Shown here piece after piece: positions 12,819 to 62,945 of a DNA stretch of 64,000 bases (positions are counted from its first letter, which is position 1; each line of letters begins with the position of its first letter). Under the pieces are notes generated by a model. It was not told where the DNA came from and did not search any database. It saw only the letters and a program-made list of their open reading frames with translations. The position numbers and the translations under genes are program-made. This DNA is from an uncultured Alphaproteobacteria bacterium (lineage in GTDB: Bacteria; Pseudomonadota; Alphaproteobacteria; HIMB59; GCA-002718135): NCBI GenBank assembly GCA_902593125.1, contig CACJGU010000003.1, forward strand, positions 46,905 to 110,904, in the 5' to 3' direction.

Positions 12819-12850
12819 ACGAAGCTCTTTTAATGAGCTTCGTTTTATTA
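12819..12850 (+). terminator. intra-operon hairpin / attenuating terminator after the SBP gene
   Basis: ACGAAGCTC pairs with GAGCTTCGT around loop TTTTAAT, followed by TTTTATT. Confidence 0.65.
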
Positions 12851-13725: not shown

Positions 13726-13726
13726 T

Positions 13727-14563: not shown

Positions 14564-14564
14564 T

Positions 14565-31318: not shown

Positions 31319-32338
31319 TTATTTGCAGTTATGAACTGATCCCCTATCAATTATATTTACTTCAGCAAGAAAATTATAGGTCTTGTTTTGTTTTTTATCT
31401 CTATTTAATAGTATATTTATAGCTTTTTTCCCAAGTTCTTTAACTGGAAAGGAAACCGCTGTAATTGGCGGCGTACTAAGATCTCTTACTAATGGACCAT
31501 CAAATGTAATAATGGAAATATCTTTTCCAATTTTTAAATTTAAATAGTTACAAGCTTTGATTGCACTTAATGCAGAATATTCTGTTGAGCAAATAATAGA
31601 TGTTATTTTTTTATTTCTTGATAACATATTTTTAATAATCTCAAAACTTTTCTCAGGCTCTTCAAGTTTTACTGATGCATAATAATTTTTATTGAAAGTA
31701 ATTTTATTTTTTTTTAAGATTTTTAAAAAAGAATTTTTACGTTCGCTCGCAAAATTATATTTTTCTGAGATATTTATGTACGAAATGTGCTTGTGTTTTC
31801 TTTCAATTAAGTAGTTAACTATTTTTTCAATTGCTTTTTTATTGTCTAAATCTACCCAAGAAAAATTAGAACCCTCTTTTGTTTTACCCCATGCAACATA
31901 GTTTATTTTATATTTATTTAAAAGGTCTATACGCTTATCTTTAGTTTTAATATTTTGAAGTACAATATTTTCTATTTTTTGTTCTAAAATTAATTTTTCA
32001 TATGCTTTAATTTCTTCATCTTCACTTTTTGCAAATAAAATTTGTAACTGAATACTTTCAGATAATAACTTATCAGACATCCCTGCTATAAATTGAAAAA
32101 AATTTCCTTGATTCAATGTACTGGCATTTGTTCCATAGATTGGAAGAACGTAACCAACTGTTTTAGTTCTGCCAGAAGCTAAAACACTAGCATAAGGATT
32201 TGGGCTATATTGATACTTATTAGCAAATTTTTTTACTCTTTCTCTAGTTTTTTCACTTACATCCGAATAACCTCCTAAGGCTCTAGAAACTGTAGTAATA
32301 GAAAGATCTAATTTTTTTGCCAATTCCTTAATATTCAT
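31319..32338 (-). CDS. LacI-family transcriptional regulator
   Basis: HTH region MNIKELAKKLDLSITTVSRALGGYSDVSEKTRERV, followed by a periplasmic-binding-protein-like core. I chose the start at MNIKE; the track extends 4 codons to 32350. Confidence 0.9.
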   Translation of the reverse strand: MNIKELAKKLDLSITTVSRALGGYSDVSEKTRERVKKFANKYQYSPNPYASVLASGRTKTVGYVLPIYGTNASTLNQGNFFQFIAGMSDKLLSESIQLQILFAKSEDEEIKAYEKLILEQKIENIVLQNIKTKDKRIDLLNKYKINYVAWGKTKEGSNFSWVDLDNKKAIEKIVNYLIERKHKHISYINISEKYNFASERKNSFLKILKKNKITFNKNYYASVKLEEPEKSFEIIKNMLSRNKKITSIICSTEYSALSAIKACNYLNLKIGKDISIITFDGPLVRDLSTPPITAVSFPVKELGKKAINILLNRDKKQNKTYNFLAEVNIIDRGSVHNCK

Positions 32339-32367
32339 AATAAATTGCATAACTCAGAAATAAAAAA

Positions 32368-32389
32368 TTGACAACCAAAACGTTTTGGT
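32368..32389. promoter_or_regulatory. TTGACA hexamer abutting a perfect 16-bp LacI-type palindrome (operator 1)
   Basis: TTGACA (32368..32373) is followed directly by ACCAAAACGTTTTGGT (32374..32389), which has a central CG. The site lies in the divergent spacer between the LacI-family gene and the SBP gene. Confidence 0.7.
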
Positions 32390-32427
32390 AAAGTATGATT
32401 TGTATATTTATAAATATGGAGGAATTA

Positions 32428-33738
32428 ATGAATAAATTAATTAAAATTTTATTAGCTTCTTTCACATCTTTATTTCTTAGTGTTTCGGCTTTTGCTGGAG
32501 GACATTTATATTCTGGACCAGATTTAAGTGGTCAGAAAGTTGTAATGTTTGGTCCTTGGCTTTCTCCAGAACAAGAAATAATGAGAGAGGTCGGAGCTAT
32601 ATTTGAAAAAGCTACTGGAGCAACTTTTGAGTACGGTGGATCTGATAGCTTTGAGCAACAAGTAATGATTGACTTAAAAGCTGGAAGTGCTGCTGACTTA
32701 GTAGTATTTCCTCAGCCAGGTTTAGCGGCAAATGCGGCAGCTATGGGTGGTCTGGTTCCACTTGGTGATGACATCAAACAAATGGTTTTAGATAACTATG
32801 CAGCTGGACAGTCTTGGGTTGATCTATCAACTTACGCTGACGAAAATGGAAATGATCAATTTAACGCTATCTTCTTTAGAACAAATGTTAAAAGTTTAGT
32901 TTGGTACTCTCCAGATAACTTTGAAGATAATGGATATGAAGTTCCAGCAACTATGGAAGAGCTTATTTCATTAACTAGACAAATGGCTTCTGATGGAAAT
33001 ACGCCATGGTGTATTGGTTTAGGTTCAGGTGCAGCTACAGGATGGCCAGCAACTGACTGGATGGAAGACATTATGCTAAGAACACATACTCCTGATGTTT
33101 ATGACATGTGGGTATCAAATGAAATGCCATTTAATGATCCAAGAGTAATTGAAGCTATGAATTTTTTTGGAACGTTTGCATTGAATGATGATTTTGTTAA
33201 CGGTGGTTCTAAAGCAGTTGCAACAACTGACTTTAGAGATGCTCCAAATGGACTTTTTACTTCACCGGCAGAATGTATGATGCATAGACAAGCAAGTTTT
33301 ATCCCAGCATTCTTTCCTGAAGGAGTAGAAGCAGGTGTTGACTATGATTTCTTTTATTTTCCAGCTTATGAAACAAAAGATCTTGGTACTCCAGTACTTG
33401 GAGCAGGAACTTTGGTAGCGGCTACGAATGATAATCCTGCTACTTTAGAGTTTATTAAGTTCTTAATGCATCCTGAGCCTCATGAATATTGGATGGCTAA
33501 AGGTGGCTTTTTAACACCACATAAAGGTGTTGATGGAAGCAAATATGCTAGTGAAACTTTTAGAAAACTAGGTGAAATTTTGACAGGTGCAACAACATTT
33601 AGATTTGATGCATCTGACTTAATGCCAGGCGCAATTGGTGCAGGTACATTCTGGACTGGTATGGTTGATTATACCAATGGAAAGTCTGCTCAAGATGTGG
33701 CTGATGCGATCCAAGATAGTTGGGACGCAATTAAATAA
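32428..33738 (+). CDS. CUT1-type ABC transporter periplasmic sugar-binding protein
   Basis: Start chosen at MNKLIKILLASFTSLFLSVSAFA (a signal peptide), preceded by GGAGGA. The track starts at 32395. Codon composition is noticeably more GC-rich than in neighbouring genes. Confidence 0.88.
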   Translation: MNKLIKILLASFTSLFLSVSAFAGGHLYSGPDLSGQKVVMFGPWLSPEQEIMREVGAIFEKATGATFEYGGSDSFEQQVMIDLKAGSAADLVVFPQPGLAANAAAMGGLVPLGDDIKQMVLDNYAAGQSWVDLSTYADENGNDQFNAIFFRTNVKSLVWYSPDNFEDNGYEVPATMEELISLTRQMASDGNTPWCIGLGSGAATGWPATDWMEDIMLRTHTPDVYDMWVSNEMPFNDPRVIEAMNFFGTFALNDDFVNGGSKAVATTDFRDAPNGLFTSPAECMMHRQASFIPAFFPEGVEAGVDYDFFYFPAYETKDLGTPVLGAGTLVAATNDNPATLEFIKFLMHPEPHEYWMAKGGFLTPHKGVDGSKYASETFRKLGEILTGATTFRFDASDLMPGAIGAGTFWTGMVDYTNGKSAQDVADAIQDSWDAIK

Positions 33739-33751
33739 TTCCTCTTGTTGA

Positions 33752-33788
33752 AACAGGCGAACAATTAACTTGTTCGCCTGTTTTTTTT
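33752..33788 (+). terminator. strong hairpin / attenuating terminator after the SBP gene
   Basis: AACAGGCGAACAA pairs with TTGTTCGCCTGTT around loop TTAAC, followed by a T-run. Confidence 0.85.
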
Positions 33789-33805: not shown

Positions 33806-34789
33806 ATGGATGTCTTGAATTTATTTTTTATAGTTTTTTTAGGAATACTTTTATTCATTTTATATTTTCATATTTCAAATTCTATTTTAGATTTTTATGG
33901 AAAAAAAACTGATAGAAGATATAATTTTGAAAATTCAATCAGAGTTGTAATTTTTATTGCACCAGCTTTTATAGTCCTTTTTATATTTATTTTATATCCT
34001 GTTTTTGAAACTATTAGGCTTAGTTTTTATGATAAATTTGGAAGAGAATTTGTAGGATTCTATAATTATCGTTGGGCTGTTAATGATCCAGAATTTCAGA
34101 GAAGTATATTAAATAACTTAGGCTGGTTATTAATAGTTCCAACCTTAAGTACTTTCTTTGGTTTAGTAATAGCAAATTTAGCTGATAGAGTTTGGTGGGG
34201 ATCTATTGCAAAATCAATAATTTTTATGCCAATGGCAATTTCTTTTGTAGGAGCTGGCGTAATATGGAAATTTATTTATGAATATAGAGGACCTGGTGAT
34301 ACCCAAATTGGACTCCTAAACGCAATAATTGTTTCATTTGGATATGAACCTCAGGCTTGGCTAACAATTCCTGTTTGGAATAATGTTTTTTTGATGGCTA
34401 TAATGATTTGGATACAAACAGGTTTAGCCTTAGTTATTTTTAGTGCAGCTTTAAGAGGTATTCCAAAAGAAACATTGGAGGCAGCAAGAATTGATGGAGC
34501 TAGTGAATTTAAAATTTTTTTTTCAATTATCATACCTTATCTTGAACAAACCATTTTGGTTATTTGGACATTAATTACTATTATTGTATTAAGAATATTT
34601 GATATCATTTTTGCAATGACAAATGGTGAATGGCAAACAGGCGTATTAGCAAATTTAATGTATGATTGGATGTTTAGAGGTGGTGGTGATTCAGGAAGAG
34701 GAAGTGTTTTAGCAATTGTAATAATGATTGGTGTCATACCTATTTTGGCTTGGAATTTATATAAACATAGACAAGAACAAAAAATATAA
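33806..34789 (+). CDS. ABC sugar permease (MalF-like)
   Basis: 327 aa with EAA loop TLEAARIDGASEFKIFFSIIIPYL. Confidence 0.9.
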   Translation: MDVLNLFFIVFLGILLFILYFHISNSILDFYGKKTDRRYNFENSIRVVIFIAPAFIVLFIFILYPVFETIRLSFYDKFGREFVGFYNYRWAVNDPEFQRSILNNLGWLLIVPTLSTFFGLVIANLADRVWWGSIAKSIIFMPMAISFVGAGVIWKFIYEYRGPGDTQIGLLNAIIVSFGYEPQAWLTIPVWNNVFLMAIMIWIQTGLALVIFSAALRGIPKETLEAARIDGASEFKIFFSIIIPYLEQTILVIWTLITIIVLRIFDIIFAMTNGEWQTGVLANLMYDWMFRGGGDSGRGSVLAIVIMIGVIPILAWNLYKHRQEQKI

Positions 34790-35928
34790 TGAAAAAATTT
34801 CAAATATCATCTTTTTTATCTCAGTTATTATTACTCTTTTTTGTAATATTATGGATCATTCCAACTTTTGGACTATTCATTAGTTCCTTAAGAGATAAAG
34901 ACTTATTAGCTATTAGCGGATGGTGGACTTCACTTACAACTACAAAAGTAAATGAAATTTATAGAATGTCTGGAATGACAGAGCAAATTTTTGAAGATGG
35001 TTTTTTTGTTGTAAGGGGAAGTTTGTTTGAAGATAATTCAGGAAAAAAAATTGAAACGTTTGGAATTACATCTAAAAATATAAATGAATTTGTAGTTGGT
35101 GAAATAGCAAGTTTTAAGGACAATAGTCAAGTTACAGTAAATGAAGTTGGTGAATATATTTGGAAATCAGAAAAAGAATTTACAAAAAAGAAGGGAAAAA
35201 GACTTTTTATAACAGCTTTAAGTCCACCCTCTTTTACATTCGATAATTATAAAGAAGTATTGTTTAAAGAGGGAATTGGCCAGGCTTTTTTAAATACTAC
35301 TGCCGTAGCATTACCCTCAACATTAATACCATTAATAATATGTTCCTTTTTTGCTTATGCCCTTACTTGGATGAAATTCTTTGGAAGAGATACCTTACTA
35401 GCAGTTATTATAGCTTCGCTTGTCGTGCCTCTTCAAATGTCATTGATACCAATCCTAACAATTTATAATGATTTTGGTGCCTTATTTGGAGTTGCAGCAA
35501 AATCGTATCCTGGTGTATGGATGGCTCATACCGGTTTTGGACTGGCCTCAACAACCTTTTTATTAAGAAATTTTATAAAATCATTACCAATCGAAATGAT
35601 GGAGGCAGCAAAAGTTGATGGCGCATCTCATTATGATATTTTTTTAAGAATTATATTGCCTCTTTCTATCCCTGCATTTGCCTCTATTTTTATTTTACAA
35701 TTTTTGTGGTGCTGGAATGATCTTTTAGTTGGATTAGTATTTTTGGATCAGGTTCCAAGTGAAATAATTTTGACTGCAAAATTAAAAGAATTACTCGGTT
35801 CAAGAGGCGAAAACTGGGAAATTTTAACCACAGGTGCCTTTGTATCAATGACTGTACCTCTATTTATATTTTTTGCTTTACAGAGGTACTTCATAAGAGG
35901 TTTAGTCGCAGGTTCAGTTAAGGGATAA
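34789..35928 (+). CDS. ABC sugar permease (MalG-like, with a large periplasmic insert)
   Basis: 379 aa with EAA loop MMEAAKVDGASHYDIFLRIILPLSIP. A hydrophilic loop of about 110 aa follows TM1. The start overlaps the upstream stop. Confidence 0.88.
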   Translation: MKKFQISSFLSQLLLLFFVILWIIPTFGLFISSLRDKDLLAISGWWTSLTTTKVNEIYRMSGMTEQIFEDGFFVVRGSLFEDNSGKKIETFGITSKNINEFVVGEIASFKDNSQVTVNEVGEYIWKSEKEFTKKKGKRLFITALSPPSFTFDNYKEVLFKEGIGQAFLNTTAVALPSTLIPLIICSFFAYALTWMKFFGRDTLLAVIIASLVVPLQMSLIPILTIYNDFGALFGVAAKSYPGVWMAHTGFGLASTTFLLRNFIKSLPIEMMEAAKVDGASHYDIFLRIILPLSIPAFASIFILQFLWCWNDLLVGLVFLDQVPSEIILTAKLKELLGSRGENWEILTTGAFVSMTVPLFIFFALQRYFIRGLVAGSVKG

Positions 35929-35957: not shown

Positions 35958-36986
35958 TTGAATTATTTCTGTAATATGAATAGTATGAATAATCAAACTT
36001 CCATTAATAATGTTTCTGGTGAATGGTTTAAACCAGAAATTGACAAAAAAACACTTAAAAACCTCTCAAAAAGAAGTGATTTTGAGGGTTGGAAACATAT
36101 TATTATATTTTTTTCTGCCTTATCAAGTTTGGGACTTCTATCAGTTTATTTTTGGAATACGTGGTTCTTTGTTTTATTTTATCTTGCATACTGTACAGTT
36201 TGGGGAGGAGCAGATGCTATCTGGCATGAATGTGGTCATCGTACTGCATTTAAGACAAGAAGAATAAATGATTTTTTTTACAACATAGCTAGTTTTATGA
36301 ATAACTTTGAGCCCGTGAGATGGAGATGGAGTCACTCATTGCATCACAGTTATACAGCATCTCTTGATCCTCACGATTATGAAGTAGATGGAAGCATTTT
36401 TGCGAAACACACTCTTTTGAGTTTTTTAATTGGTTTCTTACCAGGTATTAATCTCCTTACTCTGCACAAATCCCTTCACTTAGAAATAATTAAACATGCC
36501 CTTGGTATTAATACTAAAGTTATGGTCGATTGTATTCCTGAAGATCAAAGATCTAAGTGTATTACTAGTTCAAGAATATTTGTATTTTTATGGATAGCGA
36601 TATTGCTATCTGGCATTTTAACCAATTCTATTTTACCTATACTATTATTTTTACTTCCAACTTTTTTTAGAAGTCTTAATATGATTTGGGGACTAACTCA
36701 GCACATGGGTTTAAAAGAAGATACAAAAGATCACAGAGAGTCAACTAGATCTGTTAGATTGAATCCTATATTTAGTTTTATATATTGGAAAATGGAATAC
36801 CATATTGAGCATCATATGTTTCCAATGGTCCCTTCATATAACCTACCGAAACTTTATGAAGTAATTAAAGATCAACTCCCAAAACCTCAAACACTGTTTG
36901 AAGCTTATAAAGAGATTATACCTGCTGTAATTAAAAAATCAAAAAATCCTGAATATTATATACCTGTTAAATTATCTAATAGTTAA
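35958..36986 (+). CDS. membrane di-iron fatty-acid-desaturase-family protein (desaturase/hydroxylase, PF00487-type histidine boxes)
   Basis: Three His boxes are present: HECGHR, HSLHHSY and HIEHHMFP. There are several TM segments. The track start is TTG at 35958; an ATG at 35976 is an alternative. Confidence 0.8.
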   Translation: MNYFCNMNSMNNQTSINNVSGEWFKPEIDKKTLKNLSKRSDFEGWKHIIIFFSALSSLGLLSVYFWNTWFFVLFYLAYCTVWGGADAIWHECGHRTAFKTRRINDFFYNIASFMNNFEPVRWRWSHSLHHSYTASLDPHDYEVDGSIFAKHTLLSFLIGFLPGINLLTLHKSLHLEIIKHALGINTKVMVDCIPEDQRSKCITSSRIFVFLWIAILLSGILTNSILPILLFLLPTFFRSLNMIWGLTQHMGLKEDTKDHRESTRSVRLNPIFSFIYWKMEYHIEHHMFPMVPSYNLPKLYEVIKDQLPKPQTLFEAYKEIIPAVIKKSKNPEYYIPVKLSNS

Positions 36987-36996
36987 ACTATTAATA

Positions 36997-37026
36997 TTGA
37001 CATTAAAAAATTATTTAGTTTAAAAT
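36997..37026 (+). promoter_or_regulatory. candidate sigma70-type promoter upstream of the aldehyde dehydrogenase gene
   Basis: TTGACA (36997..37002), an 18-nt spacer, then TAAAAT (37021..37026). In AT-rich DNA such matches can arise by chance. Confidence 0.35.
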
Positions 37027-37057
37027 ACATTAATTACTTTTTTCGGAGGTTGACAAA

Positions 37058-38494
37058 GTGGAACTTAGAAATTTTATTAATGGCCAATTTATAGATTCTA
37101 TTTCAAAAAAAAATATAGATGTGATTAATCCAGCTAATCAAGAACTGGTTGGTAAAATTAATCAAGGATTAGAAGATGAAATTCATTTAGCATACCAAGC
37201 TGCTAGAAAAGCTTTTCAAAAAAGAATTCTTATAGATATGGATCCCAAAAAGAAATCAAAAATAATGCGCGCAATAGCATCAAAACTTAGAGAATACAAA
37301 CATGAGGGTGGTAAGCTTTTAAGTAAAGAAAATGGAAAGACTATAACACAGTGTGAGGGAGAATTTAACGGAGCCGCTGATACTTTTGATTATTATGCTG
37401 GCATGACAGATAAAATTGAAAACAAACTAATTCCTTCAGGAAGTGATACTTTTAATTATGTAGTCTTAGAGCCTTTTGGAGTAACACTACAAATTGTTCC
37501 ATGGAACTATCCAGTTTCAATTTTTGCGAGTATGGTTGCTCAAAATTTAATTGTTGGGAATACAATTATAATAAAACCTCCTGAACTATGTCCAATTTCT
37601 TCAAATCTTTATGGTAGAATATTTCAAGAAGTAGGATTGCCTGATGGTGTTGTAAATATAATTCATGGATATGGTGAAATTACTGGAAGAAAGTTAGTTC
37701 AAAATAAAGAATGTGATTACATCGTATTCACTGGGTCTCCTGAGGTTGCTTCTGAAATACTAAAGGAAACTGCAGATAGAATTATTCCATGTCATTTTGA
37801 GTTAGGAGGAAAATCAGCAGCAATAATTTATCCTGATGCAGATATTGATAAAGCGGTAGACAGCACAATTAAAGGAATTTTTAAACCAAATGCAGGTCAA
37901 ATATGTGTGGCAATGTCGAGAGTAATAATTCATCCTAAAGTGAAAGATGAATATATGACAAAATTAGTATCTAAAACAAAAGAATTAAAAATTGGAGCTG
38001 GAGATAACTCATCTACCGAGGTTACACCTCTTATTTCAAAAGAACAAATTAAGAGAGTGTCAAATTATGTTAAATCAGGTGTTCAGTCTGGTGCAACATT
38101 GACTCTTGGAGGAGAAGAATTAGAAATTGGTAAAGGTAATTATTACCTTCCAACAATTTTTGATAATGTTGATAAAGAATCAACTATAGCGCAGGAAGAA
38201 ATATTTGGTCCTGTTACATCTATTTTTGATTTTGAAGATAATGAACAGGCTATTGAAATAGCAAACTCTACAAATTATGGATTAGCTTCAGGCGTATTTA
38301 CTTCTAATGACCAAAAGGCAAAGTGGACTGCAGAAAGAATAAATGCAGGAATTATCTGGCAAAATGATTGGTTTGTTGATGGAGTTAATCTTCCTGGTGG
38401 AGGTTATAAAAGATCTGGTTATGGGCGTGATGGAGGCATTGATGGAATTTATAGTCATGGCCAAACAAAAAGAATTAGTAAGCGACTAAAATAA
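37058..38494 (+). CDS. NAD(P)+-dependent aldehyde dehydrogenase
   Basis: 478 aa (GTG start) with the catalytic Glu context FELGGKSA, the Cys context AGQICVAMSR, and VPWNYP. Confidence 0.9.
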   Translation: MELRNFINGQFIDSISKKNIDVINPANQELVGKINQGLEDEIHLAYQAARKAFQKRILIDMDPKKKSKIMRAIASKLREYKHEGGKLLSKENGKTITQCEGEFNGAADTFDYYAGMTDKIENKLIPSGSDTFNYVVLEPFGVTLQIVPWNYPVSIFASMVAQNLIVGNTIIIKPPELCPISSNLYGRIFQEVGLPDGVVNIIHGYGEITGRKLVQNKECDYIVFTGSPEVASEILKETADRIIPCHFELGGKSAAIIYPDADIDKAVDSTIKGIFKPNAGQICVAMSRVIIHPKVKDEYMTKLVSKTKELKIGAGDNSSTEVTPLISKEQIKRVSNYVKSGVQSGATLTLGGEELEIGKGNYYLPTIFDNVDKESTIAQEEIFGPVTSIFDFEDNEQAIEIANSTNYGLASGVFTSNDQKAKWTAERINAGIIWQNDWFVDGVNLPGGGYKRSGYGRDGGIDGIYSHGQTKRISKRLK

Positions 38495-38525: not shown

Positions 38526-38547
38526 TTGACATCCAAAACGTTTCGGA
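38526..38547. promoter_or_regulatory. TTGACA hexamer abutting the LacI-type palindrome (operator 2)
   Basis: TTGACA (38526..38531) is followed directly by TCCAAAACGTTTCGGA (38532..38547), with one asymmetric position. The architecture is the same as operator 1. Confidence 0.65.
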
Positions 38548-38593: not shown

Positions 38594-39589
38594 ATGAAAT
38601 TAATTAAAATTTTACTAATATCTGTTTTATTTATCCCTTTATCTTTTCAATCTTATGCAGCTCCAACTGGTCAGGATTTGGGAGATAAATGGTGTTCTGA
38701 TGTAAAAATGCATTTTTATGCAGGTGGGCCTGAAGCAGGTGGATTTGCAGGAATTGTAGCTGCAGGTGCAATGAATGCAATTAGAGATACTGGTGCTGAT
38801 GCAGAGATTATCTATTCAGAATGGGATTTTGAAAAAATGGTTCGTCAATTAAGAGAGTCTGTAGGTCTTGGTGTAGATGCTATTGCAATGATGGGTCATC
38901 CTGGTGATGAAGCTCTTATGCCATTAGCAAGAGAGGCCGCTGACAAAGGTATATTGATGACTTATCAAAATGTTGATCCATCAGGAGTTAGAGCAAAATA
39001 TGGTGGCGGATATGTTGGAGCTAATCTTGCTACTCAAGGAAAAGCATTAGCAAGAGAAGCTATAAGACAGTTTGGATTTCAAGCAGGCGATCATGCAATA
39101 GTTATGGTTCCAATTGGAGATTACGCTAGAGCTCAAAGAGAAGATGGTGCAAGAATAATTTTTGAAGAGCACGGTATGACTGTTACAGTTTTAGATGGAG
39201 ATCCAAAATATGCTTCAGATCCAAACATGACTATTCCAATTTTTTCTGCAGCATTAAATGCTAACCCTGAAACAAAAGTTATTGTTCATTCTGGAAGTGA
39301 TATTATGAATGTAGCTGAAGGAATTGCAAAAGCAGCTGGGTATGGACCTAATGAATTATTACAAATTGGTTTCGATACTAGTCCACAAATTATGTCATCC
39401 TTTGAAAAAGGCTATGTTCATCTAACTTCAGATCAACAACCGTTTTTACAAGGTTATTTACCCGTACTTTCTTTATGTCAAACCGCTGTTCTTGGAACAG
39501 GTGCGATAAATCAAGATACTGGTGCAGGATTTGTTGATACTAACAACTATCAAGCTGTAAAAGCACTTGCAGACGCAGGTCTAAGATAA
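38594..39589 (+). CDS. CUT2-type (ribose/fructose-like) periplasmic sugar-binding protein
   Basis: 331 aa with signal peptide MKLIKILLISVLFIPLSFQSYA. The composition is type I PBP-like. A single-domain ATPase gene and a single RbsC-like permease gene follow. Confidence 0.82.
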   Translation: MKLIKILLISVLFIPLSFQSYAAPTGQDLGDKWCSDVKMHFYAGGPEAGGFAGIVAAGAMNAIRDTGADAEIIYSEWDFEKMVRQLRESVGLGVDAIAMMGHPGDEALMPLAREAADKGILMTYQNVDPSGVRAKYGGGYVGANLATQGKALAREAIRQFGFQAGDHAIVMVPIGDYARAQREDGARIIFEEHGMTVTVLDGDPKYASDPNMTIPIFSAALNANPETKVIVHSGSDIMNVAEGIAKAAGYGPNELLQIGFDTSPQIMSSFEKGYVHLTSDQQPFLQGYLPVLSLCQTAVLGTGAINQDTGAGFVDTNNYQAVKALADAGLR

Positions 39590-39600
39590 TATTAACTCGA

Positions 39601-39633
39601 ACTGACTCATTCAATAATGAGTCAGTTTTTTTT
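39601..39633 (+). terminator. hairpin / attenuating terminator after the SBP gene
   Basis: ACTGACTCATT pairs with AATGAGTCAGT around loop CAAT, followed by T8. Confidence 0.8.
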
Positions 39634-39637
39634 ACTT

Positions 39638-40384
39638 ATGGAAAATATCATTGAATTAAATAAAGTTACAAAAAAATTTGGGGGTATAACAGCCTTAAAT
39701 AAAGCATCTCTACATGTAAAAAAAGGTGAAGTTGTAGGACTAATTGGAGATAATGGAGCTGGTAAATCAACTCTAATTAAAACTTTAGTTGGCGTGTATA
39801 GCCCAGATGAGGGTGATATAATAATAAGAGGTAAAGAGGTTAACTCATGGAATGCCCTTAAAGCTAGAGAGGCTGGTATAGAAACAGTTTTTCAAGATAG
39901 AGCTTTAACACCTCAGCAATCTATTGTTAAAAATATTTTTATGGGAAAAGAGTTAAGATATCCTTTTGGTTTTATTAAAGAAAAAAAACAAATAAATGAA
40001 GCTAATAGACTAATTAGAGAAATAGGATTTACTTCAAAACTTATTAATGCTGAATCTGCTGTAGGAAATCTATCAGGGGGAGAAAGGCAAGGTGTTGCCA
40101 TTGCGAGAGCAATTTATAACAATGCAGAATTAATCGTATTGGACGAACCAACAAATAATTTGTCCTTAAATGAAACACAAAAAGTTTTTGATTTTGTATT
40201 GAACGTAAAAAAATCAAATAGATCTGTACTGTTTATAGGTCATAACATTTATCATGTTTACGACATTTCAGACAGATTTGTTATACTAGATAGAGGTGAA
40301 GTAGTTCATGAATTAAATAAAGAGAATGTATCTTCTCCAGAAGAATTAATGAAAATAATGAGACAAACAATAATAAGTCACTGA
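39638..40384 (+). CDS. ABC transporter ATP-binding protein (single ABC domain, FrcA-like)
   Basis: Walker A GDNGAGKST, signature LSGGERQGVAIARA, Walker B LIVLDEPTNNL. The start was moved to MENIIELNKV because the track start at 39617 lies inside the terminator stem. Confidence 0.88.
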   Translation: MENIIELNKVTKKFGGITALNKASLHVKKGEVVGLIGDNGAGKSTLIKTLVGVYSPDEGDIIIRGKEVNSWNALKAREAGIETVFQDRALTPQQSIVKNIFMGKELRYPFGFIKEKKQINEANRLIREIGFTSKLINAESAVGNLSGGERQGVAIARAIYNNAELIVLDEPTNNLSLNETQKVFDFVLNVKKSNRSVLFIGHNIYHVYDISDRFVILDRGEVVHELNKENVSSPEELMKIMRQTIISH

Positions 40385-40391: not shown

Positions 40392-41366
40392 ATGAATAAT
40401 AACAAATCATTTATAACTAATATGTTTCATAAAAATGGAAGAGCTCTTGGAAGTATTGGGTATTTTACTTTACTTATGGCTATTTTTTTAATTGGAGCTC
40501 CGGAAGCATGGATTAGACCAAATTTACATCAATCTGTTTTTGTAATGATGCCAACATTAATTTTTTTAACTATTCCTCTTGTTTTTCTAGTAGCTTCAGG
40601 AGAAATAGATTTATCTTTTGCATCCACTTATGCAGTTGCTGCTTATGTTTTTGCTTTATTAGTTAAAAATGGTGTAGACCCTGCAATTTGTTTCGTCGCA
40701 GGAGTCTTTACTGGTGCTGCTATTGGGGCATTAGTTGGAACTTTAATAGTTGTTTTTCGTTTATCATCACTTGTTGCCTCTTTGGGCGTTTTGTTTCTAT
40801 TGAGAGGTGTAATTTTACTTTTAACAAAAAGTCGATCAATAACGATAATGGAAGTTGAAAATCACTGGATTTATCCTCTATTAGTAGGAAAATTTTATGG
40901 TTTCCCTATGCAAATTTTTTGGGCAGCGCTATTTGTAATTTTTTGTTACTATTTTTTTAATAAACATGTTTTTGGAATTCATATACAACATGTTGGTGAT
41001 AATTCAGTGAGCGCTGAGCAGATGGGCATTAATGTAAGTGCTGTAAAAATTAAAGCTTTTATGTTTGTTGGTATCGGTGCTGCCTTAGGTGGGATTTTTA
41101 CTACATTGATTACATACACTTTTTTTCCTACGCAAGGTTTTGGCTATTTACTTTTAGCTCTGGCTGCAGTTTTTGTAGGAGGAACCCCTTACTGGGGTGG
41201 ATTAGGAACAATTATTGGTGCTGTTTTTGGAGTTGGAGTTATTGCCTATATGGAAATTGGCATCATAGCAATTGGATGGAGTGGAGAATGGAGGCAGTTT
41301 TTTAATGGCTTAATAATTTTACTTGCTTTATTAGGACATAGGCTGCATGGAGAAAGGGTTAGATAA
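40392..41366 (+). CDS. ABC sugar permease (RbsC/FrcC-like)
   Basis: 324 aa with about 9-10 TM segments. The Gly/Ala-rich helices are typical of CUT2 permeases. Confidence 0.85.
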   Translation: MNNNKSFITNMFHKNGRALGSIGYFTLLMAIFLIGAPEAWIRPNLHQSVFVMMPTLIFLTIPLVFLVASGEIDLSFASTYAVAAYVFALLVKNGVDPAICFVAGVFTGAAIGALVGTLIVVFRLSSLVASLGVLFLLRGVILLLTKSRSITIMEVENHWIYPLLVGKFYGFPMQIFWAALFVIFCYYFFNKHVFGIHIQHVGDNSVSAEQMGINVSAVKIKAFMFVGIGAALGGIFTTLITYTFFPTQGFGYLLLALAAVFVGGTPYWGGLGTIIGAVFGVGVIAYMEIGIIAIGWSGEWRQFFNGLIILLALLGHRLHGERVR

Positions 41367-41368: not shown

Positions 41369-42688
41369 ATGGTTAAAATTGTTTTAATTGGTGCGGGAAG
41401 TTCGCAATTTGGATTAGGTACTGTAAGTGATATATTTAAATCTGAAACTTTAAAAAATTGTAATATTACACTTCATGATATTAACGAGAAAGCTCTTGAA
41501 AAAACAAGAGCTACTGCTGAGAAATATAAAAATGATTTTAATGCAAATTGTATTATAGACGCTACAACAAATCGAAGAGATGCTTTAAAAAATGCAGATT
41601 ATTGCCTAATTTCAATTGAAGTAGGAAATAGGTTTGAACTTTGGGATCAAGATTGGAAAATACCACTTCAGTATGGTTTTAAACAAATTTATGGTGAAAA
41701 CGGAGGTCCTGGCGGCCTATTTCATTCATTAAGAATCACGCCTGCAATTTTAGATATATGTGAAGATATTCATGAAATATGCCCTGATGCTTTTGTTTTT
41801 AATTACTCAAATCCAATGCAAAGAATATGTCATGCAGTTACAACAAAATTCCCTGATTTAAAATTTATTGGATTATGTCATGAAATTGCATCGATGGAAC
41901 GCCAATTACCAACTCTAATGGAAACTGAGTTTTCAAATATTGAAATCAAAGCAGGTGGACTTAATCACTTTAGTATTTTGCTAGAAGCAAAATATAAAGA
42001 TACTAAAAAAGATGGCTACCCAATAATTAGAGAGAAATTTGATAAATATTACTCTTCTCTAATTAATGAACATGATGATTATCATAAATCAAAGCCAGGT
42101 GGAGAAAGAGGTGTATTTTTTGAATTATATAAAACATATGGTTACTTACCTATAACAACAGATAGTCATTTAGGCGAATACCTACAGTGGGGTTATAGTG
42201 TAGCTGATCATGATGCAATTTCTCACTTTTATAATCAATACAAAGAACATTGTTTATCTTTTCATAGTGATAAAGTTTCAAAAGAACATTTTTTTGATAC
42301 AAAAGATACAACCGCAAGGGAAAGGATAATTCCTATAATAGAATCAATAATTGAAGATAAGAATATGATTGAAGATGCAGTTAATGTACCTAATAATAAT
42401 TTTATTGATAGCCTTCCAAATGATATTGTTGTTGAAGTTCCTGCAGTTATTAATAAAGATGGGATACATGGGCAGCGATTAGAAAATTATCCTTCTAAAT
42501 TTGGAGCACTATTAAATAATCAAGCAAGTACCATACAGCTAACTACAGATGCTGTGTTAAATAAATCTAAGCATAGTGTGTATTTAGCTTTACTTGCAGA
42601 TCCTATTGTTGATAATGTTGCTTCTGCTGAGAAACTAATAGAAACAATGGTAGAATTTCAAAAAGAATATTTAGGATATTTAAATTAG
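41369..42688 (+). CDS. glycoside hydrolase family 4 (NAD+/Mn2+-dependent glycosidase)
   Basis: 439 aa with N-terminal Rossmann KIVLIGAGSSQFG, NYSNPMQRI, and the GLCHE Cys-His metal motif. The gap to the permease gene is 2 nt. Confidence 0.85.
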   Translation: MVKIVLIGAGSSQFGLGTVSDIFKSETLKNCNITLHDINEKALEKTRATAEKYKNDFNANCIIDATTNRRDALKNADYCLISIEVGNRFELWDQDWKIPLQYGFKQIYGENGGPGGLFHSLRITPAILDICEDIHEICPDAFVFNYSNPMQRICHAVTTKFPDLKFIGLCHEIASMERQLPTLMETEFSNIEIKAGGLNHFSILLEAKYKDTKKDGYPIIREKFDKYYSSLINEHDDYHKSKPGGERGVFFELYKTYGYLPITTDSHLGEYLQWGYSVADHDAISHFYNQYKEHCLSFHSDKVSKEHFFDTKDTTARERIIPIIESIIEDKNMIEDAVNVPNNNFIDSLPNDIVVEVPAVINKDGIHGQRLENYPSKFGALLNNQASTIQLTTDAVLNKSKHSVYLALLADPIVDNVASAEKLIETMVEFQKEYLGYLN

Positions 42689-42761: not shown

Positions 42762-43841
42762 GTGGCAGATATAAATATAAACACAGTTAACAAATACTTT
42801 GGGGATGTTCATGTAATAAAAGACATTTCCCTAGATATTAAAAGTCAATCTTTTACAGTTTTAGTAGGACCAAGTGGATGCGGAAAATCAACTATGCTTA
42901 GAATGATAGCGGGTTTAGAAGATATTAACTCTGGAACAATTTCAATTGACGGACAAATTGTTAATGACTTACCACCTAAGCAAAGAAATATTGCAATGGT
43001 GTTCCAATCATATGCATTATATCCACACATGACTGTCTTCGATAATATGGCATTTGGTTTAAAGTTAGAAAAACGATCAAAAGATGAAATTAATGATCGT
43101 GTTAATGAAGCTGCAAGAATTTTGCAAATTGAAGATTATCTCAAAAGAAAACCAAAACAACTATCAGGTGGACAAAGACAAAGAGTAGCAATAGGAAGAG
43201 CTATTACTAGAAAACCAAAAGTTTTCCTATTTGATGAGCCTCTTTCAAATTTAGATGCAGCTTTAAGAGTTCAAATGAGAGTTGAGTTAGCTAAACTTCA
43301 TAATGAATTAGAGGCTACTATGATATATGTAACTCATGATCAAACTGAAGCAATGACTCTTGCTGATGATATTGTAGTTTTGGACACAGGTATAGTGTCT
43401 CAAAAAGGATCTCCGATGGATTTATATAAAAATCCAAATAACATGTTTGTAGGTGGTTTTATTGGTTCTCCAAAAATGAATTTTATAAATACAAAAATTA
43501 CTAGCAAAAGTAATAATTCAACAGAGGTCGACATTCTTGGGAGTTCAAAAATTTCTGTACCTAAATTATCAGCTTCAGCATCTGAAGGTGATAATGTTAC
43601 ATTAGGAATTAGACCAGAAGACCTTCTTGTAAATCAAGAATCTGACGGATCATGGGAGAGCAAGGTATTTGTTGTCGAAAAGTTGGGTTCAGGAACATTT
43701 CTTTATCTTGAAAAGGATGGGGAGCCACTAGTTGTTGAGACTGAAGGTAATTCTAATATTAAAGTGGGTGATTCAGTTAAAGTTGGTTTTCCATCAGATA
43801 GATGTCATCTTTTTGATAGCTCAAATCAAGCATTTAAATAA
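42762..43841 (+). CDS. MalK/UgpC/MsiK-type ABC sugar-transport ATPase with a C-terminal regulatory (TOBE-like) domain
   Basis: 359 aa (GTG start, preceded by AAGGAGGA) with GPSGCGKST, LSGGQRQRVAIGRA and FLFDEPLSNLD. Confidence 0.92.
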   Translation: MADININTVNKYFGDVHVIKDISLDIKSQSFTVLVGPSGCGKSTMLRMIAGLEDINSGTISIDGQIVNDLPPKQRNIAMVFQSYALYPHMTVFDNMAFGLKLEKRSKDEINDRVNEAARILQIEDYLKRKPKQLSGGQRQRVAIGRAITRKPKVFLFDEPLSNLDAALRVQMRVELAKLHNELEATMIYVTHDQTEAMTLADDIVVLDTGIVSQKGSPMDLYKNPNNMFVGGFIGSPKMNFINTKITSKSNNSTEVDILGSSKISVPKLSASASEGDNVTLGIRPEDLLVNQESDGSWESKVFVVEKLGSGTFLYLEKDGEPLVVETEGNSNIKVGDSVKVGFPSDRCHLFDSSNQAFK

Positions 43842-47789: not shown

Positions 47790-48890
47790 TTATATTTCTA
47801 TCTTTCTATATTCAGATTTATCTAGCCACTCAGGATTAATTTCAATACCCCAACCAGGGGCATCTTCAATTCTAACCATTCCATTGGATATTTTAAAAGG
47901 ATCACCTAAAAATAAATTTTGTTGCCAAGGATAATAATCTTTACCCTCTATTGAAAATTCAAGGTAAGGACCAGCATTACTTATTGCTTTTAAAAAATGC
48001 ATTGTGCAAATTGTTACTAAAGATAAATTAGCAGTATGTGGAGTGCATATAAAACCACCTTTTTCAATTATTTTAGCAACTTTTAAAGCTTTTGTTAATC
48101 CTCCTAGATACATAACATCTGGCTGAAAAATATTTACAATTTTTCTTTTAACCATATCTCTCCAAATTCTTAAATCGCAATCTTGTTCTCCTCCAGTTAC
48201 ATCTATCTTCAAACTATCAGTGACTTTTTTGGTTTCTTCTGGTTTCCAGTAAGGACAAGGCTCTTCAAAGTGAGTAACATTATTATCTTCTAAAAGTTTA
48301 CCAATTTCTATTGCTTGATCAGAATTATAACAACTATTTGCATCAACCATTTTAATTACACTTTTATCTAAAGATAAATTTATAGTTTTTACTATATCAG
48401 ACGTTCTTCCCTCCCATTCGTCAACTCCTCTACCACATTCAGAACCAACTCTAAATTTAAATGCATTAACGCCCTTTTCATTAAACAGTATATTAAATCT
48501 ATTTGCTTCATCATCAGGTTTAATATCTCTTTTCATTGATGAGCCATAAATTCTTAAATTACCAGGAGATCCTCCTATTAATGAAACTACAGGTTTACCT
48601 TCAATTTTTCCTTTCAAATCCCAAAGGGCAGTATCAAGTCCCGCTAATGCTCTTAAAAGATAGGAGCCAGGGAATTTGTGCTCTCTTTCAAAAACAAAGT
48701 CTGCCAAATCGTCAAAATCGTAGTAAGTTTTTCCCAAAATCCATGGTGCAACTTGTTTGTGAAAAATTTGATTTGTTATATCTGCGTGGTAAGTTGACAT
48801 TTGACCAAATCCAACTGATCCATCTTCAATGGTTACTTTAACAAAGCTAACATAAGATTTTGTAAAAGTTTCAAGTTTAATTATTTTCAT
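47790..48890 (-). CDS. enolase-superfamily enzyme (mandelate racemase/muconate-lactonizing subgroup, probable acid-sugar dehydratase)
   Basis: 366 aa with metal-ligand contexts MVDANSCY, HFEEPCP and TGGEQD. Confidence 0.83.
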   Translation of the reverse strand: MKIIKLETFTKSYVSFVKVTIEDGSVGFGQMSTYHADITNQIFHKQVAPWILGKTYYDFDDLADFVFEREHKFPGSYLLRALAGLDTALWDLKGKIEGKPVVSLIGGSPGNLRIYGSSMKRDIKPDDEANRFNILFNEKGVNAFKFRVGSECGRGVDEWEGRTSDIVKTINLSLDKSVIKMVDANSCYNSDQAIEIGKLLEDNNVTHFEEPCPYWKPEETKKVTDSLKIDVTGGEQDCDLRIWRDMVKRKIVNIFQPDVMYLGGLTKALKVAKIIEKGGFICTPHTANLSLVTICTMHFLKAISNAGPYLEFSIEGKDYYPWQQNLFLGDPFKISNGMVRIEDAPGWGIEINPEWLDKSEYRKIEI

Positions 48891-50508: not shown

Positions 50509-50512
50509 ATTA

Positions 50513-51544
50513 TTAGAATGTTTGAGTTATTTTTCTTAAATATCTTGGTTTATCTGGATTTAAATTTTTACTAAAGGAATAATTGATTATCCACGGATAA
50601 AATTTTGTCATAATATATATTGAGTCTAGAATATTAAATATTTTATTAGACTTAAAATAAAAACTTTTATCGTTGTAATTTTTTTTACTTGAAATTAAGT
50701 AGTATAAATTTGTATATTTGATTATTTCTTTAGCATTATTACTAACTATTTGACCAGATTTGTCATTAGTTTGCAGTACAAACAATTTAAACTTTTTTTC
50801 AATAAGTATTTTTGGGCCATGTAAAACCTCTGCACTACTAAATGGCTCTATTAATTCATAACATAATTCTTTGAATTTTAGAGAAATTTCATTTGCTAAA
50901 GCAAGCCCTACACCTCTACTAATAATAAATCCATGATTAACTTTTTTGTTAATTTTATTTTGACTCCATTGATTAATTTTATCTTTTATCAAAAATTCAC
51001 TTAGCTTTAATATTTCATCATTAATATTTTTTTGATTAATTGAATAAAATATTAATTTTATTATTATAGTAATAGTCATTGTAAATGATTTTGTTGCAGC
51101 AATACTTTTTTCCTGACCTGCATAAATATCAAGAAAGAAGTCAGAGTTTTTTAACATTGGGCTATTTTGATTGTTACAAAGAATAATTGTTTTTGCTCCC
51201 ATTTTTCTTACCTGTTTTTCGCACTCAATTAAGTCCTTACCCATTCCAGATTGAGAGATTACTAGTACTAAAGCATGAGAGAAATTAAATTTTGATTTTT
51301 CAATTGTGATGAGTGAAGGAGGCAGTGAATATGTAGGCAATTTACAATATTTAGCAAATAAATAGGATGAAAATAATGCAGCACAATCAGAAGTACCTCT
51401 AGCTATAGTAACAATATATTTAATTTTTTTACTATTTATTAATTTTGCAATAGATTTATAATCGTTTTTATCATTAATAAAAAGATCATTTAATATATAT
51501 GGTATGTCTAGAGCTTCTTTAAGAACTAATGAATTTTTTTTCAA
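50513..51544 (-). CDS. double-SIS-domain amino-sugar-6-phosphate deaminase/isomerase (NagB-II/AgaS/GlmS-C-like)
   Basis: 343 aa with SIS motifs TIARGTSDCAA and VLVISQSGMGKD. It overlaps the nagA 3' end by 26 nt. Confidence 0.78.
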   Translation of the reverse strand: MKKNSLVLKEALDIPYILNDLFINDKNDYKSIAKLINSKKIKYIVTIARGTSDCAALFSSYLFAKYCKLPTYSLPPSLITIEKSKFNFSHALVLVISQSGMGKDLIECEKQVRKMGAKTIILCNNQNSPMLKNSDFFLDIYAGQEKSIAATKSFTMTITIIIKLIFYSINQKNINDEILKLSEFLIKDKINQWSQNKINKKVNHGFIISRGVGLALANEISLKFKELCYELIEPFSSAEVLHGPKILIEKKFKLFVLQTNDKSGQIVSNNAKEIIKYTNLYYLISSKKNYNDKSFYFKSNKIFNILDSIYIMTKFYPWIINYSFSKNLNPDKPRYLRKITQTF

Positions 51545-52610: not shown

Positions 52611-52614
52611 TTAA

Positions 52615-53538: not shown

Positions 53539-53559
53539 AATTTAGTATAATCAATAATA

Positions 53560-55093: not shown

Positions 55094-55096
55094 TTA

Positions 55097-56871: not shown

Positions 56872-56895
56872 TTTTTATATATCAAATAGTTTAAT

Positions 56896-56929
56896 AAAGG
56901 ATCGCGGATAATAAATTCCGCGATCCTTT
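56896..56929 (-). terminator. 13-bp-stem hairpin between the SBP and permease genes
   Basis: AAAGGATCGCGGA pairs with TCCGCGATCCTTT around an 8-nt loop. T/A runs lie on both sides. Confidence 0.65.
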
Positions 56930-56934
56930 TTTTG

Positions 56935-58185: not shown

Positions 58186-58246
58186 AATAATACTCCTTAC
58201 TATCTTTTAATTTTAAAAGTATGTTATAATAATATTATAATTCTTT

Positions 58247-62944: not shown

Positions 62945-62945
62945 G

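Follow-up and report, generated by a model that had tools for sequence, protein, structure and literature searches.

A MocD-family membrane oxygenase gene paired with an aldehyde dehydrogenase gene in a sugar module of a streamlined marine alphaproteobacterium

The MocDEF system of Rhizobium leguminosarum and Sinorhizobium meliloti, comprising a membrane oxygenase (MocD), a Rieske ferredoxin (MocE), and a reductase (MocF), has been described as the oxygenase system that demethylates 3-O-methyl-scyllo-inosamine (PMC13434037). Its reported role is the O-demethylation of a polar cyclitol prior to dehydrogenation of the MocA type. LacI-flanked mocDEF clusters that include a TIM-barrel gene have been linked to an inositol derivative (PMC3538637), and the literature regards as unresolved what mocDEF-like clusters do in organisms other than rhizopine users (PMC13434037). 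Here, we analyze a stretch of 64,000 nucleotides from an uncultured alphaproteobacterium (GenBank contig CACJGU010000003.1, positions 46,905 to 110,904), referred to below as the window, in which a gene for a relative of MocD is followed by an aldehyde dehydrogenase (ALDH) gene, the pair being flanked by sugar importers of the CUT1 and CUT2 types. An initial annotation, made from the sequence alone, recognized no described sugar pathway with this combination; a described relative does exist, namely, mocDEF of rhizopine catabolism.

The resemblance to MocDEF has several components. The oxygenase of the window is homologous to MocD-like proteins over its full length and has the same histidine boxes and further invariant residues, the Rieske protein encoded by sister marine loci fits the MocE-family model best, and a CUT2-type importer and NAD-dependent sugar or cyclitol dehydrogenases are encoded nearby in both cases. 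The window carries genes for a LacI-family repressor, CUT1 and CUT2 importers, and a GH4 glycosidase, together with two operators, and the clusters of rhizobia and Marivivens carry genes for LacI, a TIM-barrel protein, and ATP-binding cassette (ABC) transporters, as well as iol genes. Demethylation before dehydrogenation is also, by analogy, parallel to the reaction that we propose for the window. Unlike the rhizobial system, the window contains neither a MocE nor a MocF gene, an ALDH together with GH4 or ThuAB takes the place of the mocABC products, the marine Rieske proteins score 110 to 118 bits, under the MocE cut-off of 136, and the marine oxygenases form a separate, much-duplicated radiation. 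The MocD family and mocDEF are known; what appears to be new, as judged by gene content, is a marine variant paired with an ALDH and lacking its own electron-donor gene.

Four other systems are relevant to the comparison. In marine Bacteroidota (Zobellia and Formosa), a cytochrome P450 demethylates 6-O-methyl-d-galactose together with a ferredoxin and a reductase (PMC6292453, PMC9400963, and PMC10033563), a system with which auxiliary dehydrogenase genes and the handling of formaldehyde are associated. The window would resemble it at the level of the pathway, the O-methyl group being removed oxidatively as formaldehyde and the way thereby cleared for ordinary sugar enzymes, but the P450 is a soluble heme protein encoded in polysaccharide utilization loci of other organisms, whereas the window encodes a membrane di-iron protein. 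AlkB and XylM share with this protein the superfamily fold, the His-box di-iron site, and the need for a small Fe-S carrier, in contrast to the context, which in the window consists of polar carbohydrate genes and not of hydrocarbon genes, with no alcohol dehydrogenase gene following. GntB, the l-arginine γ-hydroxylase of guanitoxin formation, has the same type of fold and acts on small hydrophilic molecules; it is a biosynthetic enzyme, whereas the window system is probably catabolic. Finally, the alkylglycerol monooxygenase of animals is a membrane di-iron hydroxylase that attacks the carbon beside an ether oxygen, the hemiacetal collapsing to an aldehyde that is oxidized by a fatty aldehyde dehydrogenase. 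This sequence of steps is analogous in logic to the one considered here, although alkylglycerol monooxygenase belongs to the fatty acid hydroxylase superfamily, relies on a tetrahydrobiopterin cofactor, and acts on lipids.

The oxygenase, its relatives, and the aldehyde dehydrogenase

The oxygenase open reading frame (ORF) (35958..36986, plus strand) encodes 342 residues if read from TTG at 35958 and 336 residues if read from ATG at 35976. The ATG is probably the real start, because the homologues are all 333 to 337 residues long and because the near-identical gene of a single-cell genome is called from the equivalent ATG. The 342-residue ORF of the initial annotation is confirmed as an ORF, with a gap to the stop of the CUT1 permease gene of 29 nucleotides (nt) instead of 30 and with a start that is probably internal to it. 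The three histidine boxes that had been reported are present, HECGHR at residues 90 to 95 (nt 36225 to 36242), HSLHHSY at residues 126 to 132 (nt 36333 to 36353), and HIEHHMFP at residues 282 to 289 (nt 36801 to 36824). They follow the pattern HX3-4H, HX2-3HH, and HX2-3HH and are invariant in alignments of 11 and 32 sequences. In addition, the protein matches the PF00487 profile with 122.7 bits, versus a cut-off of 29.7, over profile positions 2 to 246 of 253. A search of solved structures with the sequence gave no match even at an E value of ≤1. Foldseek comparison of an AF2 model (pLDDT 85; pTM 0.84) retrieved the FADS-like chains of 8xks_K (E value, 3.8e-4; TM-score, 0.58), AlkB-AlkG (8f6t; probability, 0.94), and SCD1 (4zyo), with modest TM-scores. 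The protein is therefore predicted by the model to adopt the helical membrane di-iron fold of the PF00487 superfamily.

Within this superfamily, the best NCBIfam match was a weak one to GntB (48.1 bits versus a cut-off of 380), which led us to reject membership in that family. Identity as an acyl-lipid desaturase, a carotenoid ketolase (CrtW), or a carotenoid hydroxylase (CrtR) was likewise rejected, since the scores were far under the cut-offs (DesB, 38.4, and DesA, 34.2, versus 500; CrtW, 25.6 versus 350; CrtR, 20.9 versus 475) and, in the case of the desaturases, since the relatives are MocD-type oxygenases encoded in sugar or inositol loci. The AlkB and XylM models gave no match at an E value of ≤0.01. 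NCBIfam holds no curated MocD model, and the MocD-like protein of R. etli, like that of the window, matches only GntB and DesB, weakly. By tblastn against plasmids, the oxygenase retrieved 298 records, mostly from Rhizobium and Sinorhizobium, with 37 to 40% identity over 95 to 100% of the query and E values down to 1e-61, one of them annotated as "hydrocarbon oxygenase MocD-like." The orthologue on pSymB of S. meliloti 1021 shares 83.7% identity with its MocD-like counterpart in R. etli. A phmmer search of 1.84 billion representative proteins returned 95 representatives at an E value of ≤1e-30. By these comparisons, the family is a small and distinct subfamily of PF00487, and the window protein is assigned to it as a MocD-family membrane oxygenase and not as a lipid desaturase.

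The MocD relatives are encoded in sugar or inositol catabolic loci of rhizobia, Rhodobacterales, SAR11, and AEGEAN-169-like genomes. In R. etli, a divergent lacI-type gene is followed by genes for the MocD-like protein, a "MocE-like" Rieske protein that passes the MocE-family model (178.7 versus a cut-off of 136), a flavin adenine dinucleotide (FAD) reductase, and a protein resembling ketopantoate hydroxymethyltransferase (PanB paralogue), with a xylose-isomerase-type TIM-barrel gene upstream. In Marivivens, a trio of oxygenase, MocE, and PanB-like genes is followed by genes for a sugar ABC transporter and by iolG, iolC, and iolD. In R. leguminosarum Vaf-108, the oxygenase gene ends an operon encoding an ABC transporter, a Gfo/Idh/MocA dehydrogenase, a sugar-phosphate isomerase, and a sterol-desaturase-family protein, with iolE and iolD adjoining. 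LacI-type regulators also flank the rhizobial and Marivivens clusters.

The gene that follows the oxygenase gene (37058..38494, plus strand, GTG start) encodes a NAD(P)-dependent ALDH of 478 residues that is full length, as initially claimed, and intact. It matches PF00171 with 490.7 bits and retains the catalytic Glu and Cys motifs ELGGK (Glu249) and GQIC (Cys283) in addition to PWN and EEIFGP. The protein scores under every NCBIfam equivalog cut-off, and a betaine-aldehyde dehydrogenase (BADH) equivalog was rejected because both models fell short (TIGR01804, 427.9 versus 668.6; PRK13252, 384.5 versus 593). Its best solved relatives are of the BADH type (347 bits).

Substitutions in both genes were analyzed by comparison with three near-identical genomes that have the same arrangement (L013, L014, and L015 in our numbering of loci). 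The ratio of nonsynonymous to synonymous substitution rates (dN/dS) was 0.085 for the oxygenase gene, with 59 synonymous and 25 nonsynonymous differences, and 0.062 for the ALDH gene, both values lying within the range of most flanking genes. The ratio indicates that the oxygenase gene is under purifying selection and in use. Over the compared interval (35976 to 38494), the synonymous rate dS reached 0.37 for the oxygenase gene and 0.20 for the ALDH gene, which is 2 to 8 times that of most flanking genes (0.02 to 0.10). This suggests that the pair was moved together by recombination, as one tract with its own history.

A conserved marine module with exchangeable electron donors

Approximately 100 loci (100-odd) were gathered, and their neighboring genes were scored by tblastn; the 35 loci with an oxygenase at least 60% identical to that of the window formed the close set. 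Co-occurrence with the flanking ABC, GH4, and ALDH genes, which had been proposed as a check, is borne out in this set, in which an ALDH, a PanB paralogue, a CUT2 importer, a Rieske ferredoxin encoded on the opposite strand, and either GH4 or ThuA plus a GFO/IDH/MocA protein recur in several arrangements. The order of the module, with variable members in parentheses, is (MocE-type Rieske ferredoxin), MocD, ALDH, (PanB paralogue), CUT2 ABC transporter, and GH4 or ThuAB. The CUT2 binding protein is 85 to 96% identical across loci, and the PanB paralogue scores 110 to 133 bits against cut-offs of 207 and 272. The ALDH gene lies directly 3′ of the oxygenase gene in most loci of the clade in which the sequence extends that far; a flavodoxin gene lies between them in L027, and the ALDH gene follows the CUT1 permease genes instead in L001 to L003 and L006.

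Two single-cell genomes (L102 and L103) match the gene order of the window exactly (UDP-glucose dehydrogenase, LacI, CUT1, oxygenase, ALDH, CUT2, and GH4) and contain in addition a Rieske gene between the second permease and oxygenase genes and a PanB paralogue gene between those of the ALDH and the CUT2 binding protein. The L102 oxygenase is 74% identical to that of the window. The arrangement of the window is also that of assemblies GCA_902548425 and GCA_902549595. Both of the additional genes of L102 and L103 are missing from the window and from L013 to L015, and DNA alignment revealed that the window, L013, and L027 lack approximately 400 bp that hold the Rieske gene and its divergent promoter region. 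In L098 to L101, the Rieske, oxygenase, ALDH, PanB-like, CUT2, and GH4 genes are present at another chromosomal site without CUT1. In L007 to L012 and L028, the Rieske, oxygenase, PanB-like, CUT2, and GH4 genes lie beside an IS240-type transposase gene on contigs attributed to other phyla. L007 to L012 are metagenome contigs whose protein is named from a metagenome-assembled genome (MAG) of Crocinitomicaceae, and L028 is a gammaproteobacterial MAG. Lateral transfer of this cassette is suggested by its CUT2 binding protein, which is 85% identical to that of the window. L010 is an inverted duplication of the Rieske-oxygenase-PanB-CUT2-GH4 cassette, possibly an assembly artifact.

The position of GH4 is occupied in eight sister loci (L018 to L023, L026, and L027) by ThuA and a GFO/IDH/MocA dehydrogenase (15312 to 17154 in L018), the latter scoring best against models of levoglucosan and glycoside 3-dehydrogenases. 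The exchange is a nonorthologous swap between two routes that oxidize a sugar hydroxyl. The window has a single MocD copy; L018 (17216 to 18211), L020 to L023, and L026 carry, besides the oxygenase-ALDH pair, a second MocD paralogue (~52% identical) just upstream of LacI and CUT1.

The comparison of arrangements points to the oxygenase (with or without the ALDH), CUT2, and GH4 or ThuAB as the functional unit, the CUT1 operon being merely a neighbor in this lineage. Rather than an insertion wedged between two importers, as first described, the pair is thus the 5′ part of a conserved module that runs into CUT2 and GH4. Partners of the Rieske and PanB-like types occur in rhizobia and in marine clades alike, and the simplest reading of the window is therefore that of a streamlined derivative with secondary loss of both genes. 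The missing donor in particular is a secondary loss because sister genomes have the Rieske gene exactly at the permease-oxygenase junction.

The initial remark that no electron donor is encoded beside the oxygenase holds for the entire 64 kb. Tblastn with the marine Rieske proteins gave no match in the window, and Pfam analysis of all 63 window ORFs of at least 70 residues revealed no ferredoxin, flavodoxin, rubredoxin, cytochrome b5, or ferredoxin reductase. When the window ORFs of at least 45 residues were all scanned for motifs, a single Fer2-like pattern (851 to 1195, plus strand) emerged; it is located inside a histidinol dehydrogenase gene on the opposite strand and is read as a chance match.

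Elsewhere in the family, the donor varies. A MocE-type Rieske protein is encoded in sister loci L001 to L012, L024, and L098 to L103, with TIGR02377 as the best model at the subthreshold scores given above. A MocF-type FAD reductase gene is absent from the window and from all marine clade A loci, in contrast to the terrestrial loci L016, L075 to L077, L082, L084, L086, L088, L092, L094, and L095, in which it is present. In approximately 20 Pelagibacteraceae loci, genes for a 2Fe-2S ferredoxin (Fer2) and for a Pyr_redox reductase that differs from MocF adjoin the MocD-like gene. The flavodoxin gene of L027, a locus without a Rieske gene, encodes 145 residues (11019 to 11456, minus strand) and offers an iron-free alternative donor. 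Fusions are also found (P0246, P0249, P0251, P0256, P0257, P0267, P0269, and P0335), with a C-terminal Rieske domain in 7 of 10 long family members, Rieske plus FNR domains in a protein of 760 residues, and rubredoxin plus rubredoxin reductase in another of 818 residues, the last being a further likeness to AlkB. Rieske-less arrangements are common in the clade (L018 to L023 and L025 to L027). Donors are evidently interchangeable across the family, so that in the window a donor could plausibly act in trans.

A proposed ether cleavage and its alternatives

We propose that the imported compound is a sugar, glycoside, or cyclitol bearing an O-alkyl group, most likely O-methyl, and that the oxygenase, using O2 and a pair of electrons supplied by a small redox protein, would hydroxylate the carbon beside the ether oxygen. 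Collapse of the hemiacetal would then leave a free hydroxyl and an aldehyde, which would be formaldehyde if the group were methyl. The freed hydroxyl would allow processing by the NAD-dependent GH4 enzyme, which must oxidize the C3 hydroxyl, or by the ThuAB route, and the ALDH would clear the released aldehyde. In fuller versions of the module, the PanB paralogue may capture the C1 unit, PanB chemistry being the transfer of a C1 unit at the formaldehyde level. In the window, the Rieske gene and the PanB paralogue have been lost, the oxygenase gene would have been drawn into the LacI-controlled CUT1 operon, and electrons would come from a carrier encoded elsewhere. GH4 cleavage proceeds by NAD+ oxidation of the C3 hydroxyl, β-elimination, hydration, and reduction (PMC10628242), and demethylation is placed before the GH4 or ThuAB step because each of these routes acts on a free hydroxyl and would be blocked if that hydroxyl carried an O-methyl group. 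SAR11-type cells oxidize C1 units for energy by tetrahydrofolate (THF)-linked reactions (PMC3160333), so that the released methyl group need not be wasted.

We assign to this reading as a whole, in which a MocD-family oxygenase and an ALDH act within a sugar module to cleave the ether of an imported O-alkylated compound, a probability of about one half. We infer the substrate class, the O-dealkylation itself, the ALDH substrate, cotranscription with CUT1, and the supply of the donor in trans. The initial annotation had offered, as one of two options, an oxidative step on an imported O-alkylated sugar yielding an aldehyde for the ALDH. This option has the best comparative support, in that the two genes stay together where loci are rearranged and O-demethylation is the precedent within the family, while the chemistry remains a prediction from sequence comparison.

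Several points weigh against the proposal. There is no electron-donor gene within 64 kb. The ALDH resembles betaine and aminoaldehyde dehydrogenases and so may act on another pathway aldehyde, and ALDH-family enzymes are not the usual formaldehyde oxidizers. Neither the ALDH nor GH4 is obligatory, since the module occurs without the former in L007 to L012 and L028 and without the latter in L018 to L027. The best NCBIfam match of the CUT2 binding protein, to a rhizopine-binding protein, is weak (64.9 versus a cut-off of 420) and gives little pointer to the substrate. The assignment to MocD relies on orthologues named MocD-like and on adjacent MocE-family ferredoxins, with these and not the originally studied MocD sequence as the reference. 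The demethylating role of mocDEF rests on genetics as told in reviews (PMC13434037). Lastly, the 29- to 47-nt gap without a terminator is the only basis for cotranscription of the oxygenase gene with the CUT1 operon. As for the substrate, rhizopine cannot be the one used in the open ocean. We also considered 4-O-methylglucuronate, glycosylglycerols, and branched-chain sugars and chose none of these, as there was no discriminating evidence. Substrate hints sought from the solved relatives of the binding proteins, GH4, and the ALDH consisted of generic matches only.

Instead of cleaving an ether, the oxygenase might hydroxylate a C-H bond, converting a methyl or methylene group of the imported compound, for example in a 6-deoxy sugar, at a C-methyl branch, or in an alkyl aglycone, to an alcohol that would be oxidized by dehydrogenases to an aldehyde and then by the ALDH to an acid, as in the AlkB and XylM pathways mentioned in the initial annotation. 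The fold and histidine boxes in common with AlkB are consistent with this, as are the best, though weak, curated match, GntB being a hydroxylase of a polar amino acid, and the presence of NAD-dependent oxidoreductases (GH4 and ThuB-like) within the module. Ether cleavage is nevertheless favored because the sole functional precedent in the family is O-demethylation, because the repeated presence of a PanB paralogue is indicative of a C1 unit at the formaldehyde level, and because ether cleavage yields an aldehyde directly, in keeping with an ALDH gene that directly follows the oxygenase gene without an alcohol dehydrogenase gene, none being called between or beside the two genes in any of the 35 loci. 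We regard C-H hydroxylation as unlikely.

A comparably low likelihood attaches to a scheme in which the two enzymes catalyze nonconsecutive steps, the ALDH taking a later sugar-derived aldehyde (for example, a semialdehyde, glyceraldehyde, or glycolaldehyde) and the C1 product entering general C1 metabolism. The affinities of the ALDH, which is nearest to betaine and aminoaldehyde dehydrogenases and to general ALDHs and falls under all equivalog cut-offs, would fit this scheme, as would the ALDH-less modules, the conserved promoter-like element that parts the two genes (see below), and the THF-linked C1 oxidation of SAR11-type cells (PMC3160333). However, the ALDH gene stands directly after the oxygenase gene in most loci of the clade, even where all else is rearranged, and the two genes share a dS that is raised in comparison to their flanks.

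That the oxygenase gene is a decaying remnant, rendered nonfunctional by the loss of its Rieske and PanB-like partners, is highly improbable. Sister genomes do keep both partner genes at the junctions where the window and L013 to L015 lack them, and the 64 kb hold no donor, but the gene is full length, has a dN/dS of 0.085, and retains all of its histidine boxes, and Rieske-less arrangements are common in the clade and donor types vary elsewhere. Least probable of all is a lipid- or carotenoid-modifying enzyme present by chance in a sugar locus, the second option of the initial annotation, for which one may cite the Pfam family name "fatty acid desaturase," copied by public annotations, and a 47 to 50% identical paralogue that adjoins proteorhodopsin in Pelagibacteraceae but which is contradicted by the scores for DesA and DesB (34 to 38 bits versus 500), CrtW, and CrtR, by the cyclitol substrate of the homologues of studied function, by up to five paralogues in one sugar or cyclitol island (L055), and by the position of the oxygenase gene in sugar loci in 35 of 35 close loci.

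The surrounding locus and the wider radiation

The window has a G+C content of ~28%, and its closest contigs and proteins are those of streamlined marine Alphaproteobacteria, namely, GORG single-cell genomes labeled "uncultured Alphaproteobacteria" or Pelagibacteraceae. Upstream of the oxygenase gene, the locus begins with a LacI-family repressor gene (31319..32350, minus strand; Pfam LacI and Peripla_BP_3/1), which is divergent from operator 1. This operator, CCAAAACGTTTTGG, is a perfect palindrome (32375 to 32388) that begins 1 nt after a TTGACA −35 box (32368 to 32373), upstream of the CUT1 binding-protein gene, and is kept at the same position in L013, L001, L024, L027, and L018. The CUT1 substrate-binding protein gene (32395..33738, plus strand; Pfam SBP_bac_1/8) has its likely true start at ATG 32429, after GGAGG. 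In this gene (32429 to 33738), we observed 5 nonsynonymous and 0 synonymous differences in comparison to L013 and 9 and 1, respectively, in comparison to L014, the reverse of all other genes of the locus; this may reflect diversifying selection or a localized event. Two CUT1 permease genes follow (33806 to 34789 and 34789 to 35928, plus strand; Pfam BPD_transp_1). From the end of the second, the distance to the oxygenase gene is 29 nt to the TTG and 47 nt to the ATG, and no terminator-like hairpin was found between the second permease, oxygenase, and ALDH genes. Strong hairpins of this kind follow both binding-protein genes, at 33750 to 33784 (CUT1) and 39599 to 39628 (CUT2).

The intergenic region between the oxygenase and ALDH genes contains the promoter-like element TTGACA-18-TAAAAT (36997..37026, plus strand), which matches the consensus at 11 of 12 positions. 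This candidate ALDH promoter of the initial annotation is the best match in the interval from 31.2 to 44.1 kb, but in this AT-rich DNA, consensus matches are no commoner than in shuffled sequences (62 versus 64.9), and for this reason conservation was used to evaluate the site. A TTGACA-like box followed 10 to 13 nt on by TTTAG(T/A)TT is present between the two genes in 11 of 11 divergent loci (the window and 10 others). The box may be an internal promoter or a regulatory site.

Downstream of the ALDH gene, operator 2, CCAAAACGTTTCGG (38533 to 38546), begins 1 nt after a TTGACA −35 box (38526 to 38531), before the CUT2 binding-protein gene. It had been noted in the initial annotation and proves to be the twin of the operator 1 palindrome, so that one operator precedes each binding-protein gene. 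The two are near-identical, are the sole matches at ≤1 mismatch in the 64 kb, and are conserved in related loci. The plus-strand genes that follow encode the CUT2 binding protein (38594 to 39589; Pfam Peripla_BP_4), ATPase (39617 to 40384; ABC_tran), and permease (40392 to 41366; BPD_transp_2), a GH4 glycosidase of the NAD+/Mn2+ type (41369..42688; Glyco_hydro_4 and 4C), the closest solved structure of which is the α-galacturonidase LplD (3fef), and a MalK-type ATPase (42762..43841; ABC_tran, OB_MalK, and TOBE_2). The CUT1 cluster itself includes no ATPase gene, and the MalK-type protein presumably energizes its permeases. With the only MalK-type ATPase for these permeases encoded at the end of the CUT2/GH4 operon, the two operons under LacI control would be mutually dependent.

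The remainder of the window contains housekeeping genes, a further CUT1 system, and an amino-sugar cluster. The CUT1 system (11478 to 16730) consists of a binding protein and two permeases and is followed by a 721-residue protein with an ADP-ribosylglycohydrolase domain. The carbohydrate-rich region from 47790 to 63881 encodes an enolase-superfamily enzyme, a GMC oxidoreductase, SIS proteins, a NagA-like amidohydrolase, a BadF-type kinase, NanE, a ROK kinase, another CUT1 system, an AstE/AspA-like deacylase, a GH20 enzyme, a galactokinase, and a TauD-family dioxygenase. A protein with a GFA (glutathione-dependent formaldehyde-activating enzyme) domain is encoded at 18662 to 19069 (minus strand), 17 kb upstream of the oxygenase gene; to tie it to formaldehyde from the proposed oxygenase reaction is speculative.

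Beyond the close set, two further contexts of MocD-like genes were observed. In L050 (9137 to 12383; "Candidatus Pelagibacter ubique" HTCC8051), genes for proteorhodopsin, a MocD-like protein (47 to 50% identical), a 2Fe-2S ferredoxin, a Pyr_redox reductase, and a glutathione S-transferase (GST) stand in a row, so that a complete three-component oxygenase is encoded beside the rhodopsin gene, and two GFO/IDH/MocA dehydrogenase genes follow on the other strand. The same row occurs in about 20 other Pelagibacteraceae loci (L032 to L048, L051, L058, L072, and L093). In L055 (1 to 17829; single-cell genome AG-447-P01), and also in L056 and L067, five MocD-like paralogues are encoded in one 17-kb island together with a CUT2 transporter, a PhyH dioxygenase, a rhamnose mutarotase, GFO/IDH/MocA proteins, two xylose-isomerase-like TIM barrels, an IlvD/Edd dehydratase, a PanB paralogue, DUF1326, and PpoB2. 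The L055 locus lacks a ferredoxin gene.

Searches of the literature for bacterial demethylation of pinitol or ononitol by MocD-like enzymes and for methyl sugars in SAR11 found nothing relevant, and we found no paper on the MocD-like family in SAR11 or AEGEAN-169 genomes, the AEGEAN-169 paper being silent on that family. Methylated sugars resist ordinary glycolytic and glycosidase chemistry, and the P450 system of algal-polysaccharide-degrading Bacteroidota is, to our knowledge, the only characterized marine sugar O-demethylase. We tentatively raise the possibility, with less confidence than we have in the proposal for the window, that the large MocD-like radiation of SAR11- and AEGEAN-169-type genomes, so far undescribed, consists of O-demethylases or ether-cleaving enzymes for dissolved methylated sugars and cyclitols of the sea, which would feed C1 oxidation and would use whichever donor has been retained, be it a Rieske protein, a 2Fe-2S ferredoxin, a flavodoxin, or, as in the window, a housekeeping donor in trans.

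If this were so, the family would offer a marker gene for methyl-sugar turnover in the streamlined oligotrophs that are dominant in the open ocean, along with an enzyme that can be tested for it, would link sugar uptake islands to C1 energy metabolism, and would supply a function for the "mocDEF-like" clusters found outside rhizopine catabolism. The window itself illustrates genome streamlining at the scale of a pathway, in which the dedicated genes for electron transfer and C1 handling have been dropped and the catalytic gene is still under selection.

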